A stretch of 18,707 nt of DNA from Candidatus Eiseniibacteriota bacterium (lineage in GTDB: Bacteria; Eisenbacteria; RBG-16-71-46). Below, piece by piece: positions 225 through 14,185 of this stretch. The stretch is taken from positions 1 to 18,707 of the forward strand of contig JANLWX010000089.1 of the NCBI GenBank assembly GCA_031364845.1. Reading direction: 5' to 3'. Below the pieces are notes generated by a model. It did no database searches. It was given only the letters and a program-made list of their open reading frames with translations, and was not told the DNA's origin. Position numbers and translations under genes: made by a program. Position 1 is the first letter of the stretch. Each line of letters begins with the position of its first letter.

Positions 225-908
225 ATGGACTCTATGGCTCCTAATTCCCAAGATCCGGAAGAAACGCCACAGATCACTTCACGGCAGCTTGGCCTTTACG
301 AGGCCCTGGTTGATCTTGAACAAGATCGTGCGGGTGAGGCCGCGGTGCCGAGGCTAGCAGCCATGTACCTCGGCGCCATCCTCGTCTTCGGGCAGCGTGG
401 CAACCCGGATGCGATCGCCCTCGCGGCCCACGGTCTGCGTGAGTTGATGGAGAAACTCGCGCGGCACCTCAACGTACCGATGGCGCAGACGTCAGGGGTC
501 ACCGCCAAAGTATTTGAAATGTCTGCAAAGTATCGAGCGATTCAGGAGGCGCACCCGGATCGGAAGGAAGACCTTCGGATCGACTTCCACGAGTGTGCAG
601 AGGCCCTCGCTGTGTGGTTTCCTGAGAACCATACCCCGAGATCGAGGTGGGGCGCGGAGGTTTTTGACCGGCTCGATCCTCGCGGGCTGAAGTTGCCGTA
701 GCCGGTGAAGGAGCCTCACACGAGGGCGTGGCTCAAGTGCCATAAGTGCTTTGAGGATGCATCCCACCACAGACGCATTCCGTCAAACGAGTTTGAGGAG
801 CACCTTCAGCTCTTCGAGGACTTTCTCCTGAACCGGCTGCGGCCAAACGCAGTCGAGAATCAGAGCGCTCTTGAAGATATCGCCCGGGAAGGAGAGGCCA
901 ATGCCTAG
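225..908 (+). pseudogene. ~227-codon all-helical hypothetical protein (possibly HEPN/Abi-like) interrupted by one in-frame TAG at 699-701
   Basis: ORFs 225-701 and 705-908 are in the same frame, separated only by TAG-CCG. No SD precedes GTG705. Motifs NPDAIALAAHGLRELMEK and FEDASHH. The stop at 906-908 overlaps the next ATG at 901. Confidence 0.65.
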
Positions 909-3735
909 CCTGGAACACGTTCGGCGTGCGAAGGCTGCGATGAATCGCGTCGCAGATCTCGAGTTCTTCTTCGAGAAGCTGACCTCGCCCGGCTGGATCG
1001 AGCCGCTTGAGAAAGAGGGTTTCTTCAAGGAGCCGTGGGCACCAGTGTCCGAAGGACGCTACGTAAGCTTCCCCTTCTGGCCGCAATCCAAGTACTTGGC
1101 ACGGATGGCCGCCATGGCCCCCGACACGGTGTTGGAAGTCATCCAGCGCATCCCGAACACAGATAATGTGCGCATCCACGAAGACTATGCGGACGCCGCT
1201 CTTTCAATGCCGCCAAACACGGCTGCGAAGATATTGCCGCTCGCGAAAAGCTGGCTCTCCTCGCCATACTTGATGCTTCTGCCCATGAAGCTCGGCCACT
1301 TGTTGCGACATCTTGCAGTTGGAGGCGAAACTGCGGCTGCTCTCGACTTGGCTGCCGCTCTACTGACGGTCATTCCTAACAAGGAAACAAGTAGGCCGCA
1401 TGGTCGATTCGAGGACTACTCATACGGCGAGATACTTGAGCAGGATATCCCGCCCCTATTGACGAGAGATCCCCTTGGTACGCTTCGAGTCTTGGCGAAT
1501 GCGCTTGAGCAGGCCGTCATGTCTGGCGCGGTTGGTGTTCCAGGCGAGCGGGAAGACTATTCGGCCTCCTGGAGGCCCGCAGTCGAGGAACATGCACAAA
1601 ACAATGAATACGATGTCCGCCCGCTCTTGGTAGCAGCGGTCCGTGATGCTGCAACGATTGTCGTCACCACTTCGACACTGCCCTTGGCAGAGGTGTTCGA
1701 AGCCCTTGATGAGAGGCCATGGAAGATCTTCAGTAGGATCGGCCACCATCTCGTCGGCACGTTCCCGGATCTTGATCTAGAGCTTACAAGGCGCCTCGCA
1801 TTCGATACCAATCGAGCAGGTGACCCTACATATCACCACGAATATTGGCGGCTTGCGCTTGCCTCGTGTCAGCACCTCTCGCAGGACGACCGCGAGGTAT
1901 TCTTACAGCGACTGGAAACGGAGTTGGAGAAGGATGAAAGGGAGGCCGAATCTCTGAGCCCCGATATTGCCGATCAAGAAAAACGACGGGCTCGCTACCG
2001 TCTGTTCCGTCGGCTGTCTTTGCTCCGACAGGCGCTGCCACCCTCAGGTCAATTGCGGTGGAATGAACTAAAGGGGGAGTTTTCGGAAGTCGAGCACCCT
2101 GAGTTTCTCACCTACACGTCAGGAGTGTGGACCGGCCCAACCAGCCCCAAGAGTTCGGAAGAGTTGTCGGCCATGGCCGTTGAGGAACTCGTTGAGTACT
2201 TGCGCAACTGGCGACCGACGGACGCATTCATGGGGGACAGCGAGGAGGGGCTCGCCAGAAAGATCGCTCCTGTGGTGGCCGAGAACCCCGAGTTATACGC
2301 AACAAGGGCCATGGACTTCTGTGGACTTGACCCAACTTACGTCCGTTCATTAATTGACGGCTTGCGGCAAGCTCGTAGGCGGCGGCATGCCTTCGATTGG
2401 GAACCTGTTCTCGATATGTGCGAGTGGATTGTCACTCAGCCGCGTTCGATTCCGGGCCGTATCGTTGATGAGAATCACGATGATTTAGATCCGGACTGGG
2501 GCTGGACGCGCAAAGAAATCGCCGGTCTCCTCGAAGACGGATTCGAGGAAGGTGTCGGAGCCTTACCACAGCGATTGAGAGGCCAGATCTGGAGTGCGCT
2601 CTCACCACTAACGAGCGATCCCGACCCCACGCCTGAGCATGAGGCCCGATACGGGGGATCGAACATGAACCCGCTAGCGCTGTCCATCAACAGCGTCAGG
2701 GGGGTCGCCCTTTATGCGGTCGTAAAGTATTCGCTTTGGGTCCGTCGCTACTTGGAAACTGAAGGCGATACCTCCGCCTTGGCACGGGGGCTCGATGCGA
2801 TTCCTGAGGTGCAGCGAGTACTTGAGGATCACCTCCGCGTTGACCTGGACCCATCACTTTCGACGCGGGCCGTATTCGGGCAGTGGTTGCCCTGGTTGCA
2901 CAGGCTTGATCCGAATTGGACGCTAGAACAACTGCCGCACATTTTCCCGCGGAGCGATGAGCAACGTGCCCTCAGGAGTGCTGCTTGGGGCAGTTATCTT
3001 CTGTATTCCGGCGTATTCAATAACATCTTCCACCTCCTGCGTGATGAATACGCCTTTGCCATTGAGCGGATTGGTCAGGACAATTTCGGGGGCCGGGACG
3101 ATGAACATCCAGATCTTCGGCTAGTCGATCACCTCATGATCTTCTACATCCGCGGGCTTATCGAGTTGAGAGATGAGCGCGGCCTCCTGCAGCAATTTTA
3201 CCGCAACGCTCCCATTGAGTACCGTGAGCGGGGCATCCGATTCGTCGGAAGCCTTCTCCACAATGAGAGCTCTGACGCCCTGCCAGCCGAGGTACAGCTG
3301 CGGCTTCAGGCACTCTTTGACATGCGTCTGAAGAACGAAGAACCGTCCACGGAAAGAGCGCGAGAATTGGCTCACTTCGGCTGGTGGTTCGCGTCGGGCA
3401 AGCTACCTCAGGACTGGGCTGTTTCGCGCCTCATTACTGTCCTGCGCACGGGCAGGCAATTGGATGCTCAAAACTTGGTCGTGAAGCAGTTGGCGGTAGC
3501 TGCTCAGACGGATCCAATCTCAACGAGTGAAGCCCTTCTCTTGCTAGTCCTAGCAGACTCAGATGCGTGGGGATTTGGTCTTTGGGTCGAGGAGGGGCGC
3601 GTCGTTCTCGAGCGTGCGCTTGCGCAGGCCGACCCGCGGCCAAGAGACCACGCCAATCGGACCATTAACCTCTTAGCTGCTAGGGGAAATCGGGCCTACG
3701 TAGATCTCCTCACCGAGAACCGTGAAGCGCAGTAA
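901..3735 (+). CDS. Large (944 aa) hypothetical protein, Leu/Trp/Glu-rich, predicted alpha-helical repeat (ARM/HEAT-like); putative defence-associated
   Basis: Long uninterrupted ORF; GGAGAGG SD at 891-897 before ATG901; no Walker A, signal peptide or clear TM segment seen; many A/T-ending codons unlike the neighbouring genes. Confidence 0.8.
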   Translation: MPSLEHVRRAKAAMNRVADLEFFFEKLTSPGWIEPLEKEGFFKEPWAPVSEGRYVSFPFWPQSKYLARMAAMAPDTVLEVIQRIPNTDNVRIHEDYADAALSMPPNTAAKILPLAKSWLSSPYLMLLPMKLGHLLRHLAVGGETAAALDLAAALLTVIPNKETSRPHGRFEDYSYGEILEQDIPPLLTRDPLGTLRVLANALEQAVMSGAVGVPGEREDYSASWRPAVEEHAQNNEYDVRPLLVAAVRDAATIVVTTSTLPLAEVFEALDERPWKIFSRIGHHLVGTFPDLDLELTRRLAFDTNRAGDPTYHHEYWRLALASCQHLSQDDREVFLQRLETELEKDEREAESLSPDIADQEKRRARYRLFRRLSLLRQALPPSGQLRWNELKGEFSEVEHPEFLTYTSGVWTGPTSPKSSEELSAMAVEELVEYLRNWRPTDAFMGDSEEGLARKIAPVVAENPELYATRAMDFCGLDPTYVRSLIDGLRQARRRRHAFDWEPVLDMCEWIVTQPRSIPGRIVDENHDDLDPDWGWTRKEIAGLLEDGFEEGVGALPQRLRGQIWSALSPLTSDPDPTPEHEARYGGSNMNPLALSINSVRGVALYAVVKYSLWVRRYLETEGDTSALARGLDAIPEVQRVLEDHLRVDLDPSLSTRAVFGQWLPWLHRLDPNWTLEQLPHIFPRSDEQRALRSAAWGSYLLYSGVFNNIFHLLRDEYAFAIERIGQDNFGGRDDEHPDLRLVDHLMIFYIRGLIELRDERGLLQQFYRNAPIEYRERGIRFVGSLLHNESSDALPAEVQLRLQALFDMRLKNEEPSTERARELAHFGWWFASGKLPQDWAVSRLITVLRTGRQLDAQNLVVKQLAVAAQTDPISTSEALLLLVLADSDAWGFGLWVEEGRVVLERALAQADPRPRDHANRTINLLAARGNRAYVDLLTENREAQ

Positions 3736-7470: not shown

Positions 7471-7971
7471 TCAGCGCTTCGTTGCCGCCCGCGCACTCTT
7501 GCCGCCGAGATGCGCCTCCACGAACCACAGATCCTTGTCGGCCGCCCGCGAGATCTCGGTGCACAGGTCCGCGGTGTCCTGATCGATCTCTGAGAACGTT
7601 TCGATCGCCGCGCGCACACCGGCGCCGAACTTGGCGATGGCGCTCGCCAGCATCTCGACGTGGTCCAGGTCGCGCACCAGCTCGAGCGGATAGGGCTTCA
7701 AACGCGTCGACTTCGCGGCGGCCTGCAGCGTTCCATGCACCTGACCGCCGACCTGCGCCACGCGTTCGGCGATTTCGTCCGACCACTCCGCTGCGTGCTC
7801 ATAGACCTCGTCGAACAGCCGGTGCAGCGCAATGAAGCTCGGGCCGCGCACGTTCCAGTGTGCCTGCTTCGCCTGCATCGCCAGATCGCTCGAGTCGGCG
7901 AGCAGCTGATTCAGGACGCGCGTGACCTTCTCGCGGGTCTTCGCCGGCAGATCGTTGTGGGTCGGGTGCAT
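7471..7971 (-). CDS. dps: DNA starvation/stationary-phase protection protein Dps (166 aa)
   Basis: ATG at 7971 with GGAGGA SD; KQAHWNVRGPSFIALHRLFDE, DEIAERV..VGG, DQDTADL and DKDLWFVEAH are Dps signatures. Confidence 0.96.
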   Translation of the reverse strand: MHPTHNDLPAKTREKVTRVLNQLLADSSDLAMQAKQAHWNVRGPSFIALHRLFDEVYEHAAEWSDEIAERVAQVGGQVHGTLQAAAKSTRLKPYPLELVRDLDHVEMLASAIAKFGAGVRAAIETFSEIDQDTADLCTEISRAADKDLWFVEAHLGGKSARAATKR

Positions 7972-8030
7972 CGATTCCTCCGTGAACTGCATGAACCGGT
8001 CGCGGGCCGCAAGGCCCGGCGTCCGGTGCG

Positions 8031-9230
8031 CTATTCGTTTACCCGCAGCAGCTGGAAGATCTCTTCGTTCGTCTTCCACTTGTTGAGCAGGTCGAGCAGC
8101 TTCTGCATCGCATCCTGCGGCTGAAGTCCTGCGAGCCCGCGGCGCAGCAGGTGCATGCGCTGCACGATCTCCGGAGGATAGAGCTTCTCCTCCTTGCGCG
8201 TGCCGCTCTTCGGGATGTCGATCGACGGATAGATCCGCCGCTCGGCCAGTTCGCGCGACAGCACCAGTTCCATGTTTCCGGTGCCCTTGAACTCCTCGAA
8301 GATCACTTGATCCATGCGCGAGCCGGTATCGACGAGTGCCGTGCCGACGATCGTGAGCGATCCGCCGCCTTCGATCTTGCGCGCCGCACCGAAGATCATG
8401 CGCGGCGACTGCATCGCGGTCGAATCGAGACCGCCCGACATGGTGCGTCCGCTGCCGTCGGAATTTGCGTTGTAGGCGCGCGCGAGTCGCGTGATCGAGT
8501 CCAGCAGCAGCACGACATCCTTGCCCTCGATCACCTGGGCCGCGACCACCTCCATCGCGTGCTCGGTGGTCTCGATGTGCTCCTGGATGCTCATGTCGCT
8601 CGAGGCGGCGATGACGGTCGCAGGTGTATTGCGCTTGAAGTCGGTCACTTCTTCGGGACGCTCATCGACGAGCAGCGCGTAGATCCCGACTTCCGGATGA
8701 TTGAAGGCAATCGATGCCGCGATGCACTGGAGAATTCGCGTCTTGCCGGCCTTGGGCGGCGAAACGATCAGACAGCGCTGTCCGCGTCCGATCGGTGAGA
8801 TCAGGTCGATCGCGCGGCCGGTCGTGCGGTCGCCGTAAGGAGGCGAACCTTTGCCCGGCGGAAGCTCGAGGATCAGGCGTTCGGTGGGATCGAGCGCCAC
8901 GCCGATCTGCTGCATGTCGCGCAGGATCTCGAGACCTCGGCGCTTCTCGTTGCCGGAGCGGCCGCGAGGATTGCGGCGGCGGCGCTGGCCATTCTGCTGG
9001 GGGGCGTTGTCGCCTAGCCCGCGTGCTTCCGAATAGGGCTGCGGGGCGTTGTTGGTGATCGGGCGGGCCGGACCGCGCGGACGGCGGCGGCGGCGGCGGC
9101 CTTGTGGCTGTCCGGATCCTCCGCCTTCGGAGGGGGCGGCTCCCGGTGCGGATCCTTGCACGGCCCCTTGAGGGGCTCCGGGCGGCTGTGGGGGTCGCGG
9201 GCCGCGAGGGCGGCGGCGACGGGGTCTCAT
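8031..9230 (-). CDS. rho: Atypical transcription termination factor Rho (399 aa): complete ATPase domain, Arg/Pro/Gly-rich N-terminus, no recognisable OB-fold RNA-binding domain
   Basis: IDLISPIGRGQR, Walker A PPKAGKT, DERPEEVTD, LLDSITRLARAYN, SGRTMSGG, GAARKIEGGGSLTI, EEFKGTGNMEL, SGTRKEE; GGAG upstream of ATG9230. Confidence 0.93.
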   Translation of the reverse strand: MRPRRRRPRGPRPPQPPGAPQGAVQGSAPGAAPSEGGGSGQPQGRRRRRRPRGPARPITNNAPQPYSEARGLGDNAPQQNGQRRRRNPRGRSGNEKRRGLEILRDMQQIGVALDPTERLILELPPGKGSPPYGDRTTGRAIDLISPIGRGQRCLIVSPPKAGKTRILQCIAASIAFNHPEVGIYALLVDERPEEVTDFKRNTPATVIAASSDMSIQEHIETTEHAMEVVAAQVIEGKDVVLLLDSITRLARAYNANSDGSGRTMSGGLDSTAMQSPRMIFGAARKIEGGGSLTIVGTALVDTGSRMDQVIFEEFKGTGNMELVLSRELAERRIYPSIDIPKSGTRKEEKLYPPEIVQRMHLLRRGLAGLQPQDAMQKLLDLLNKWKTNEEIFQLLRVNE

Positions 9231-9387
9231 CGGAATGGTGGACTCCAGAGTTTCGACATCGAACGGGTGCGCGCGATCGCGAGTACCAGGGGTGCTCGCG
9301 ACGCAACGCGTTGGGTGCGCATGCTGAGGCGCACGGGACGGTGCTGCGGGTCGCGCCCGATCGGGCGCGAAAGGCAGTTCACGACTT

Positions 9388-9410
9388 CCGCGCCCCGATG
9401 AGGGACGCGG
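9388..9410 (-). terminator. Stem-loop just downstream of the 9425-10609 gene
   Basis: Minus strand CCGCGTCCC-TCATC-GGGGCGCGG (9 bp, one G-U), ~15 nt after the stop; no U-tract. Confidence 0.4.
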
Positions 9411-9424
9411 GATCGCGAACCGCC

Positions 9425-11440: not shown

Positions 11441-14185
11441 ATGAGGACACTTCCGATCCGAATGTCTGTTCGAGAGACGCTCCCCACGATCCTCCGCGGC
11501 GACGAAGCGGCAATTCTCACTCCCGAGGCATTCGTGCGCCTCGATGCCTTCGCCCACGAAGCCGACAACGAGATGCAGCTCGTGTACGTGCGTGATGAAT
11601 GCGCTTCACGCATGCGGCAGGGCGGCGCTTCGCACGGAGTCGAGTATCTGCTCTCGCAGGTGTGCCGCATCCATCGCGAACACGAGCGCGCGCACCAGAC
11701 GCTGCTGGCACTCGGCGACAAGCTCGCGGCGGCGAAGCAGTGGGAAGCACTCGCGGTGGTCGCCGAGCGCGCACTCGCGATCGAAGAGACCGGCGCCGCG
11801 GCCCATCTGCTGGTCGCCGCGCACGAAGCGCTGAAGAAAGATCCTGAGCGGATCGAAGCGCTGCAACGCGCATGGACGATCATCCCCGACGATCTCGACC
11901 TGGGCCTCACACTCGCGGTGCGGCTCGGAGAGATCGGACGCGGGGGCGAACGCCGCGCGCTGCTGGGCGCTCTGATGCCGCGGTTCGCCGAAGAGAAACG
12001 CTACGCGGGACTCGAAGAGACCGCACTCGAGTTCACCGAGCACGAAGATCACGAAGGTCTCGTGCAGCTCATCCAATCGCTCCCGATGCTGGTCGAGCAG
12101 GAAGCGCACGCGCAGGTCACCCAGTTGCTCGGCATCGCGTTCCCGCCGCTCGCGCGCGCGGAGCGCGCCGGCGAAGTGATTGATCCGGTGCGCAAGGTGG
12201 TGTTGAAGACGCTCGACAAGCTCGGAGCGCCGGCCGCGGACCGCCATCGCCCGATCCTGGTCGAATGCCTGCGCCAGGGCCCGGGGCGCGATCTTCCGCA
12301 GCCCGATCCGGTGATCGAACTTTCGGGCGTGGCGGATACCGACAAGCCGCTGATTCCGTCCCTCGAGCGCTTCGATGCGATCGTGGCGCTGCCGCCGGGC
12401 CGCGCCGTCCATCACACATCGTTCGGCGCCGGCCGCGTGACCGGGAACGACTCCGAGACCGTGATCCTCGACTTCGCGCACGGACGCGGTCACCGGATGC
12501 CGATCGTCGCCGCACGGCGGTCGCTGACACTGCTGCCGGACGACGACCTGCGCCTGCTCGCGGTCGTCGAGCCCGAAACGCTCGCGCGCATGCGTTCACA
12601 CGAGCCGGTGGAAATCCTGGTTCGCGCGCTCAAGTCGCTCGGCGGTCTGTCGGACGCGACGCGGCTCAAGGTGTTCCTGGTCGGTTCGGGCCTCGTGCCG
12701 CCCAAGGACTGGAACGTGTTCTGGCGCAAGTCGCGCGCGGCGGCCGAGAAGGATCCGCGCATCGATTCCTCGCGCGCATTCGAGCAGACCTATCAGCTGG
12801 CACCCGAGGGCATGGAGGCGAGCGACGACGATCGCGCGCCGCTGCCGTCACTCCAGCCGAACAAGACCGTGAAGCAGAACCTCGCGACGCTGCGCAAGTT
12901 CCTGTCGCAGCATCCGCGCGCCGACAGCGCGCTGTCGCAGCGCTTCGGCCGCTACGTCCAGCGCGCCGTGCTCGATCCGGACGGCGATCGCGTTGACCGC
13001 GCGCGCGCGGGCCTGTTCTTCGCGCGCTGGTTCCCGGAGCGCGTCGAAGAGTGGACGAACGTGCTGCGGACGTTGTGGGAGCAGGGACTCGCGATCTCGG
13101 ATCTGCCGGGCGAGGACGAACAGCTCGGACTGCTGCGCGCGTCGCACGAGGCGGGCGTGGAAGCCGATGCGATCCTGTCGGCGCTCGACTCGCGCTTCGC
13201 GGCCGTGCGCACCGAAGGCGAGCAGGCGCGCGTACAGCTCGACGATCGCGGACGCGACGAGATGCGCCGCACGCTGCTCGCGCACGCGACCCGCTATCCG
13301 GGTGCGGCGCTGCGATTGATCGAGGAAGAGCTCGACCGCACCACCGACGGTCCGGAGCCGTGGCGGCTGTTCTGCTCGGCGCTCACGCTCATCGAAGAGC
13401 GGCCCAAGCCTTCGACCGCGGACAAGGTCCTGCGCTGGCTCGAAGACGGCGGCGCGTTCGACGCCGTGCTCAAAGGCCGCCCGTGCCCCGAAGAATTCCG
13501 TCTCAAGGTGCGGATCCTGATGCGCCAGTGGAAGTCGAGCGATCGTTATCTGTTCCCGGCGCTCGAGGCCGCGGAGCGGCTCGGTCTCGCCGAGGAAGCC
13601 GCCGCGATCCGTTCGGCGCGCAAGACGAAAGCCGAGCGCATGTTCGACGGTGTCGGCCAGATGGTCGAAGACGCCGAGCTGCCGGTGATGACGCGCGCGA
13701 CATTCGAGCGGCTCACCAAGGATCTCGAGCGCATGGAGCGCGAGCTGCGCACCACGATTCCGGCAACGATCCAGAAGGCGCGCGAACTCGGCGATCTCAA
13801 GGAGAACGCCGAATATCATTCCGCGAAGGACAAGCAGGCGAACGTCAGCAAGATCGTCGCATCGCTCCAGCTGCGGCTGTCGCGCGCGCGCTTCGTCGAC
13901 GACATCGAAGTGAAGGACGGCAAGGTCGGTGTCGGCACCGAAGTCATCCTCGAGAGCGGCGGCGAGAAGCTCAAGTACTGGATACTCGGTGAAGACGAGC
14001 ATCACCACGGCGCGCACGTGATCTCGTTCCAGGCGCCGGTCGGCCGTTCGCTGCTCGGTCACTCCCTCGGTGACGAACTCGAACTCGGCGAGGGTGCCGC
14101 GCGCAAGCGTTATCGCGTCGTGTCCGTGGAGCGGCGCCTGCCGCCGCACGGCGCCGAAGCCGCGCAGGAAACCACAGAAGCCTGA
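11441..14185 (+). CDS. greA: Multidomain (~910 aa) GreA/GreB-family transcription elongation factor with C-terminal Gre domain
   Basis: C-terminal ~165 aa: MTRATFERL..., ARELGDLKENAEYHSAK, VGVGTEV, ISFQAPVGRSLLG. The N-terminal ~750 aa is helical with a VHHTSFGAGRV motif. Alternative start at ATG11462. Confidence 0.88.
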   Translation: MRTLPIRMSVRETLPTILRGDEAAILTPEAFVRLDAFAHEADNEMQLVYVRDECASRMRQGGASHGVEYLLSQVCRIHREHERAHQTLLALGDKLAAAKQWEALAVVAERALAIEETGAAAHLLVAAHEALKKDPERIEALQRAWTIIPDDLDLGLTLAVRLGEIGRGGERRALLGALMPRFAEEKRYAGLEETALEFTEHEDHEGLVQLIQSLPMLVEQEAHAQVTQLLGIAFPPLARAERAGEVIDPVRKVVLKTLDKLGAPAADRHRPILVECLRQGPGRDLPQPDPVIELSGVADTDKPLIPSLERFDAIVALPPGRAVHHTSFGAGRVTGNDSETVILDFAHGRGHRMPIVAARRSLTLLPDDDLRLLAVVEPETLARMRSHEPVEILVRALKSLGGLSDATRLKVFLVGSGLVPPKDWNVFWRKSRAAAEKDPRIDSSRAFEQTYQLAPEGMEASDDDRAPLPSLQPNKTVKQNLATLRKFLSQHPRADSALSQRFGRYVQRAVLDPDGDRVDRARAGLFFARWFPERVEEWTNVLRTLWEQGLAISDLPGEDEQLGLLRASHEAGVEADAILSALDSRFAAVRTEGEQARVQLDDRGRDEMRRTLLAHATRYPGAALRLIEEELDRTTDGPEPWRLFCSALTLIEERPKPSTADKVLRWLEDGGAFDAVLKGRPCPEEFRLKVRILMRQWKSSDRYLFPALEAAERLGLAEEAAAIRSARKTKAERMFDGVGQMVEDAELPVMTRATFERLTKDLERMERELRTTIPATIQKARELGDLKENAEYHSAKDKQANVSKIVASLQLRLSRARFVDDIEVKDGKVGVGTEVILESGGEKLKYWILGEDEHHHGAHVISFQAPVGRSLLGHSLGDELELGEGAARKRYRVVSVERRLPPHGAEAAQETTEA

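Follow-up and report, generated by a model that had tools for sequence, protein, structure and literature searches.

The 18,707 nucleotides of Candidatus Eiseniibacteriota DNA analysed here (the window) carry a gene for a second Rho, in which the ATPase motor is preceded by an arginine-rich tail in place of the N-terminal RNA-binding region. A reading of the sequence alone had proposed a non-canonical Rho paralogue, and this is supported, as the gene is under purifying selection and is accompanied by a canonical rho in the same genome. Our preferred, though tentative, interpretation is that of an old, selected second Rho forming a homo-ring RNA motor, which would be loaded via its basic tail and would release rut-poor transcripts.

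Gene and domain content

The gene lies on the minus strand, and its start is supported by an MR.RRR beginning in 20 of 24 family loci.

8031..9230 (-): OB-less Rho paralogue P0001, 399 aa

As the sequence-only reading had anticipated, PF00006 alone passes the Pfam cut-off (residues 139-342) with no hit to Rho_N or Rho_RNA_bind, and residues 1-115 searched alone against Pfam gave no family at E ≤ 0.05. The RNA-binding signatures had also been described as missing from other frames; when the whole genome was searched in all six frames, nothing was found on the window's contig at E ≤ 1, and Rho_RNA_bind and Rho_N rose above cut-off solely at the canonical rho on contig C85. The gap upstream of the paralogue is 194 nt (9231-9424), as had been claimed. 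An OB profile built from the sequences collected in this work did not match the paralogue, nor did it exceed 10 bits in any of 240 homologues (including 0 of the 120 best database matches), and by inspection and this profile the best 120 database matches all share the OB-less architecture. The top cluster in a search of a cluster atlas was the paralogue's own family.

Using the NCBIfam models, scores of 374 bits for PRK09376 (cut-off 315), 368 for TIGR00767 (509) and 331 for the NF041509 'short form' (628) were obtained; as the laxer PRK09376 is passed, databases call such proteins plain 'Rho'. Compared with canonical (Type 1) Rho, the paralogue has the Rho-type ATPase with its catalytic and pore-loop residues, lacks Rho_N (PF07498) and the OB fold (PF07497), and falls short of the TIGR00767 cut-off. 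Compared with the short Rho of Group B, Type 4 and NF041509, it is likewise a second copy without Rho_N, and the OB domain retained by that form is missing. Judged by these models, it belongs neither to canonical Rho nor to the OB-bearing short form. It has the single ATPase domain and the essential residues of the 'Rho-like ATPase domain' class of Moreira 2024, an assignment made with Pfam and NCBIfam models rather than with that study's own HMMs.

A complete canonical rho of 431 aa, the second copy that had been sought in the genome, was found on contig C85. It is 53% identical to the paralogue over 255 aa; the two genes are on different contigs and unlinked.

A mis-assembly, or a split gene with its OB half elsewhere, would be invited by an assembly of 233 contigs with gaps (nusG and rplK not found), but its probability is negligible. 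The junction at 8880-8960 is bridged without differences by a contig from run X1 (8742-9100) and one from run X2 (8640-8960), both runs coming from one study and X1 possibly being the source sample, so the OB-less form is no mis-assembly. In addition, all 120 close homologues share the architecture, and the assembly contains no separate gene for Rho_RNA_bind. Loss of NusG was also considered and set aside: nusG and rplK are both missing from this assembly, whose stated completeness is 97%, and NusG is present in 10 of 15 family relatives, so that an assembly gap is most likely, probably at the tuf-nusG-rplK region.

The arginine-rich N-terminal tail

The region ahead of the motor is strongly basic and contains three arginine runs.

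8937..9230 (-): predicted disordered tail, residues 1-98 (24 Arg, 18 Pro, 16 Gly; net charge +21)
9198..9221 (-): arginine run 1, RRRRPRGP (4-11), kept in relatives
9069..9098 (-): arginine run 2, RRRRRRPRGP (45-54), with R47-R50 never varying in an alignment of 61 sequences
9033..9065 (-): short conserved motif after run 2, residues 56-66, with N60 and Y66 invariant in 61/61
8958..8984 (-): arginine run 3, RRRRNPRGR (83-91)

The residue positions previously given for the three runs, and for DPTERLILE (from 114), are correct in the translated ORF. Seven tail residues (R47-R50, N60, Y66 and R84) are invariant in 61/61 sequences, and the pattern of run 2 with its following motif was found in 111 of 120 matches. 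The three runs exceed chance for the composition of the genome, since at least three R4 runs occur in just 10 of 33,273 stop-free stretches of 98 aa taken from the six frames of this 66%-GC genome. Arginine runs recur in all 29 loci examined, in tails of 89 to 174 aa. An origin by triplet slippage was considered, run 2 being near-pure CGC here, and was rejected, as relatives use mixed synonymous codons (235 CGC, 80 CGT, 47 CGG, 25 CGA and 8 AGR).

The likeness that had been drawn to the arginine-rich motifs of lambda N, Tat and Rev holds for composition only, and the Arg-rich tails differ in the other families of the clade. The tail holds one aromatic residue. A single aromatic is weak for Arg-aromatic phase separation, and this speaks against condensates. 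No conserved upstream RNA element was identified in 9 aligned leaders, an Rfam search of the window gave no match, and a promoter and terminator scan returned no sigma-70-like promoter and no minus-strand terminator-like site.

Predicted structure and the connector

A structural model was obtained with AlphaFold2 on a 61-sequence alignment and is of moderate quality (mean pLDDT 69, pTM 0.62). Residues 1-98 are predicted without secondary structure (10-residue pLDDT means of 40-59), followed by a helix at 99-109 (block pLDDT about 85) and a RecA-type domain. The latter matches Rho best in Foldseek, and VIA-align gave a Z of 29.8 and an rmsd of 2.6 over 249 aligned residues. An OB fold in residues 1-115, which would have contradicted the earlier reading, was thus found neither by HMM nor by structure prediction.

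8901..8936 (-): connector start (equivalent to E. coli 132-136) and 7-residue clade-specific insertion, predicted helix; residues 99-110
8826..8861 (-): lengthened Pro/Gly loop specific to the family, where the connector meets alpha6 (E. coli ~150-156), residues 124-135

The suggestion that GLEILRD resembles the first OB strand and may be a deletion scar does not stand: GLEIL aligns with E. coli L132-F133-E134-N135-L136, the start of the connector, and the domain loss therefore ends just ahead of it. The canonical connector begins L-F-D/E-N-L-T-P-L-Y/H-P/A, and its spacing is kept in the OB-bearing copies of families f10 and f15 (5/5), in gammaproteobacterial forms (43/50) and in an OB-less group of Acidobacteriota type (7/7). 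In 118 of 119 family sequences a 7-residue insertion is located between the second Leu and V-A-L-D-P. By inspection, an insertion of 6-7 residues is also seen in families f3, f7, f11 and f13, with a strict pattern matching 50/93 and 3/10. The longer Pro/Gly loop of f1, the host's family, occurs in 109 of 120 close matches and in none of 120 distant ones. In E. coli Rho, changes at G150/G152 and at 156-158 are reported to impair termination and are thought to act on ring closure, and the protein Psu binds residues 139-153 (PMC5449661).

Motor residues and selection

The ATPase, Q-loop, R-loop and Arg-finger motifs had been called intact, and mapping on E. coli Rho confirmed it.

8739..8759 (-): Walker A, PPKAGKT (K163 = E. 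coli K184)
8649..8666 (-): DERPEE, with catalytic Glu E190 (= E211) and Arg valve R191 (= R212)
8496..8510 (-): Walker B, LLLDS (D244 = D265)
8430..8453 (-): Q-loop, SGRTMSGG (E. coli SGKVLTGG)
8316..8330 (-): R-loop, DTGSR (R305 = K326)
8187..8207 (-): Arg-finger segment SGTRKEE (R345 = R366)

The equivalents of K184, T185, D210, E211, R212, D265, S266, R269 and R272, and of Y274, T323, K336, G337, N340 and R366, are present in 120/120 aligned rows, these being the query and 119 of 120 matches (the dropped match differs only by E215D). The basic residue of the R-loop is Arg in 119 of the 120 rows, and a basic residue at this position supports contact with RNA inside the pore (PMC4499133). Fixed differences from canonical Rho were found at M219F, F232S, P279D/E, K283R, V284T, T286S, K298R and W381H/Q; the P279 position is D or E in 120/120 rows, and at W381 every row has H or Q. 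The C-terminal helices are still about 50% identical to those of Rho.

Nei-Gojobori dN/dS against 27 relatives gave a median of 0.17 (0.09-0.29) from residue 99 onward, and these core values are probably upper estimates, as dS is lowered by G+C bias; for the tail the range is 0.21-0.64, from rough tail alignments. In seven genome pairs, the motor of the paralogue had 1.1 to 2.2 times the dN of the canonical gene. The proposed analysis of selection and monophyly among homologues of the same architecture thus came out in favour of a maintained gene, with dN/dS far below 1 and a single clade at 100/99 support.

As the motor and the pore loops that touch RNA are kept residue for residue, ATP-driven RNA translocation would very probably be the activity of this protein, whichever reading of its role is taken. 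Conservation of the motor suits a subunit of mixed rings, or a motor outside termination, equally well.

Distribution and gene neighbourhood

The architecture was found in other genomes, as the sequence-only reading would need, and is present in family f1 and four more families of the phylum. The named close relatives of the host are Candidatus Eisenbacteria MAGs. In a first set, all 24 family genomes had the paralogue together with a further rho match, with two loci frame-broken (G016, G020). Among 150 sampled genomes of the phylum, a paralogue match at E < 1e-100 was obtained in 55/59 of f1, 5/6 of f3, 7/7 of f7, 4/4 of f11 and 10/10 of f13, and one rho match only was seen in families f2, f4, f5, f6, f8, f9, f12 and f16. 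A further rho match is present in 53 of the 55 f1 genomes with the paralogue, the two exceptions being incomplete assemblies. For f7, f11 and f13, 10 of 21 copies were retrieved, and neither N-terminal Pfam domain is present in any of these 10, whose tails are Arg/Gly-rich.

These data bear on the possibility of a non-functional, decaying duplicate. The class has been labelled 'not functional' (Moreira 2024, PMC11347177), reading frames are interrupted at 2 of 24 family loci, and no match to the paralogue was obtained in 4 of 59 family genomes. Those four are fragmented assemblies of 170-500 contigs, dN/dS lies well under 1, no residue of the catalytic set varies and the copy has been kept across five families in one clade (100/99). 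Residues, dN/dS and retention largely refute this explanation, which is very improbable.

The site of the paralogue is syntenic, with a cobalamin adenosyltransferase gene at most 1.5 kb upstream in 17/24 family loci and efp downstream in 9/24; a zincin gene is a neighbour in four f3 loci as well. Given that kin are not independent, these counts of retention and synteny show inheritance and not function. The greA-like gene and efp lie on the strand opposite the paralogue, and neither a conserved partner domain nor a co-oriented partner gene was found at the examined loci. In the window a ferritin/Dps-like gene, 7471-8079 (-), is directly downstream and co-oriented; as it stands beside the paralogue in just one other locus of L003-L049, it is probably a recent neighbour. 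On the other side, 11441-14185 (+) encodes a 914-aa protein with GreA/GreB domains only C-terminally (749-897) and about 750 unannotated residues, and this protein is conserved near the paralogue in many relatives.

Near the start of the window is a 954-aa ORF without a Pfam family, 871-3735 (+), which matches the PADLOC model Dsr1 with an E of 1.6e-44 over model positions 543-1110 only, omitting its N-terminal part. It lies in a stretch of lower GC (56-61% against 66%), and is possibly a defence-island gene. Upstream of it is a 158-aa ORF, 225-701 (+), with no PADLOC match.

A mobile origin of the paralogue was considered and rejected, as among matches in 21 phage and 59 plasmid records none covers 80% of the query and all are below 60% identity.

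Ancestry

Trees were made from the motor region only, on hand-picked subsets of 80, 92, 46, 57 and 49 rows from which duplicates, fragments and most gammaproteobacterial rows were left out, and no root was determined. In the 57-row tree (LG+C20 PMSF, careful mode) the OB-less copies of f1, f3, f7, f11 and f13 form one clade at 100/99, with a gammaproteobacterial type as its sister at 80/87, unstarred, and the canonical rho copies of the phylum grouping elsewhere, with E. coli. Duplication of the host's own rho was rejected as the source of the paralogue by a constraint test in which the paralogues were forced to group with the canonical rho of the phylum (AU p = 0.004; 46 rows, quick tree).

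This result is relevant to whether the protein could instead join canonical Rho in mixed hexamers as a catalytically active subunit, which would dilute the C-specific primary sites, contribute basic tails and so tune or relax rut dependence, or damp termination. Co-occurrence with another rho match in 53 of 55 paralogue-bearing family genomes is in line with such a role, as are the retained catalytic and trans-acting Arg-finger residues, and hetero-hexamers have been proposed for second copies (Moreira 2024, PMC11347177). A paralogue that does not stem from the host's own rho, is 53% identical to it and is encoded at an unlinked site speaks against shared rings. So do the fixed differences clustered in blocks around E. 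coli 219-235 and 279-300, which may lie at subunit contacts. Mixed hexamers are unlikely, and the many fixed substitutions relative to the host's canonical Rho fit the separately evolving oligomer of our preferred interpretation.

Second copies in f10 and f15 (L135-L138, L141) lack Rho_N, have a weakened OB fold (PF07497 scores of 51, 41, 51, 30 and 20.5 bits, against 112 for the canonical copy) and have the RYFAL segment replaced. They share M219F and F232S/N, and are placed near the OB-less clade in trees without firm support; a constraint uniting them with the paralogues in one clade gave p = 0.23. These copies are candidate intermediates of OB loss, and would suggest a stepwise path from loss of Rho_N through erosion of the OB fold to its loss with gain of a basic tail.

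A separate OB-less group (P0277, P0434-P0440; one member labelled Acidobacteriota) has long poly-Arg tails without the helical insertion. The free tree separates it from the paralogues and requires the OB state to change 4 times across its 49 rows, although a joint clade is compatible with the data (p = 0.35), so repeated loss of the OB fold is unproven. This group may be convergent.

Relationship to known Rho proteins

Compared with canonical Rho (E. coli; TIGR00767; PDB 1PV4, 3ICE, 5JJI), the paralogue has lost the Rho_N bundle and the primary OB site and has P279, F232, M219 and W381 replaced. The second copies of Group B, Type 4 and Type 2d, and paralog_Rho2 of NF041509, resemble it in lacking Rho_N; those of f10 and f15, unlike the paralogue, keep the OB fold (PF07497 at 20-51 bits). 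The Streptomyces short form is far from it in the tree. In the Rho of M. tuberculosis, M. luteus and B. thetaiotaomicron the N-terminal region, hydrophilic or disordered, contributes to RNA binding or to condensation, and the OB fold is kept; unlike in these proteins, the tail of the paralogue would be the sole region likely to capture RNA beyond the pore.

The closest parallel in the literature is the 'Rho-like ATPase domain' class, with 28 sequences, in the supplement of Moreira 2024 (PMC11347177), where the class is described as well conserved with the essential residues kept, includes Myxococcales forms with a D/G/R-rich initial domain, and is called 'not functional Rho factors', a label stated without a test in the portions of the text examined. 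Members in its Table S3 include M. xanthus MXAN_RS11995 and sequences from Anaeromyxobacter, Colwellia, Marinobacter, Opitutus and Salinibacter, and no match to Eisenbacteria or Krumholzibacter was found in the supplement. The Eisenbacteria copies do not appear there, but the OB-less Rho architecture had already been catalogued, so that its novelty had been overstated. Like the paralogue, proteins of this class have the Rho ATPase domain alone and usually occur beside a canonical rho, as in M. xanthus, which has both a Type 1 Rho and MXAN_RS11995 (PMC11347177). The paralogue clade is distinguished from the class by its three conserved Arg runs and the 6-7-residue helical insertion in the connector, and further by the family-specific Pro/Gly loop and strong selection.

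MXAN_RS11995 (= MXAN_2479, annotated as a shorter frame) is listed as constitutive, with transcription at 78-151 RPKM against 102-200 for the canonical rho (PMC6791715), and has been named among pathway proteins detected in a proteome (PMC6627406). This expression supports the architectural class and not this clade. For the paralogue itself, 20 sequencing runs were listed as containing matching sequence and none of them is of RNA, which is neutral as to its expression.

Short OB-less Rho proteins of marine Gammaproteobacteria (~315-325 aa) also have a basic N-terminus, and share with the paralogue the V-A/S-x-D/N-P connector and the M219F/F232S signature. They differ in a Lys-rich tail of ~30 aa, in K181 replaced by Gly in 51/51 and in the absence of the helical insertion. 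Loci L050-L110 are of this kind, with a Lys/Arg N-terminus of ~30 aa. A further short OB-less Rho, on plasmid pB of Spartinivicinus ruber (L134:2959-3918), adjoins holin and terminase genes, suggesting a phage-like plasmid.

Literature searches, which missed most subscription papers, returned no functional study of an OB-less Rho. Moreira 2024 alone surfaced as describing a class of OB-less or second Rho, nothing was found for Rho with Eisenbacteria and termination factor or for changes at Rho F232/M219, and under the terms searched a 2025 review (PMC12360218) gave no passage on OB-less paralogues.

Proposed mechanism and significance

Since the primary site is missing, the loader that suggests itself is the conserved basic tail. 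In the homo-ring that we tentatively favour, six subunits would assemble as in Rho, and the six tails, each with a net charge of about +21, would bind the RNA backbone near the pore with little sequence preference. Binding of RNA to the Q- and R-loops would then close the ring and start ATP hydrolysis. The two connector insertions specific to the clade may stand in for the allosteric input of the lost domain. By translocating 5'-3' the motor would dislodge RNA polymerase, for instance where the RNA is G+C-rich, structured or untranslated, and the transcripts released would be those poorly loaded by the host's normal Rho. Condensates of the tail are possible and are not required by this model.

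There is precedent for several of these steps. In M. tuberculosis Rho a hydrophilic N-terminal insertion stimulates RNA binding and early termination, acting together with the OB fold and hindering motor function (PMC4499133). Pore-bound RNA (U12) is sufficient to close the ring of E. coli Rho (PMC5449661), and RNA on the pore loops triggers closure, with NusG speeding activation at poor rut sites (PMC12360218). On the other hand, the tail of the marine gammaproteobacterial forms is only ~30 aa, so a long Arg tail is no general need of an OB-less Rho.

Primary-site and Q-loop interactions were both reported to be mandatory for RNA release in E. coli (Chalissery et al., 2007; PMC1950744), and the primary site is gone in the paralogue, which counts against simple termination. 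In the same organism P279S/L is unrescuable (PMC1950744), and mutants of I382, which adjoins W381, read through in vivo (PMC5449661, PMC1950744). Loss of the rut-reading domain, the changed P279 and W381 positions and the E. coli genetics would all suit an RNA motor outside termination, engaged in RNP remodelling, clearance of R-loops or stalled complexes, or feeding of RNA decay, possibly in tail condensates such as those driven by the disordered region of B. thetaiotaomicron Rho (PMC12360218). Its neighbours also include a GreA-domain protein and efp, but these are on the opposite strand, with no conserved partner domain or co-oriented gene, and the C-terminal helices have stayed about 50% identical to Rho. 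We regard a role of this kind as somewhat unlikely.

It is conceivable, if doubtful, that motors independent of rut are widespread, the Rho_N bundle having been lost and the OB fold eroded and dropped, possibly repeatedly, with polyarginine tails taking over loading. If this is true, a second pathway of factor-dependent termination or RNA release, with its own targets, would exist in many bacteria, among them the tractable M. xanthus. A large, strongly selected clade that has every motor residue but lacks the primary site offers a natural experiment on the loading and closure of Rho rings, and would also inform the role of the disordered basic regions of Rho where there is no OB fold. The strong selection on this clade challenges the published 'not functional' label of the class.
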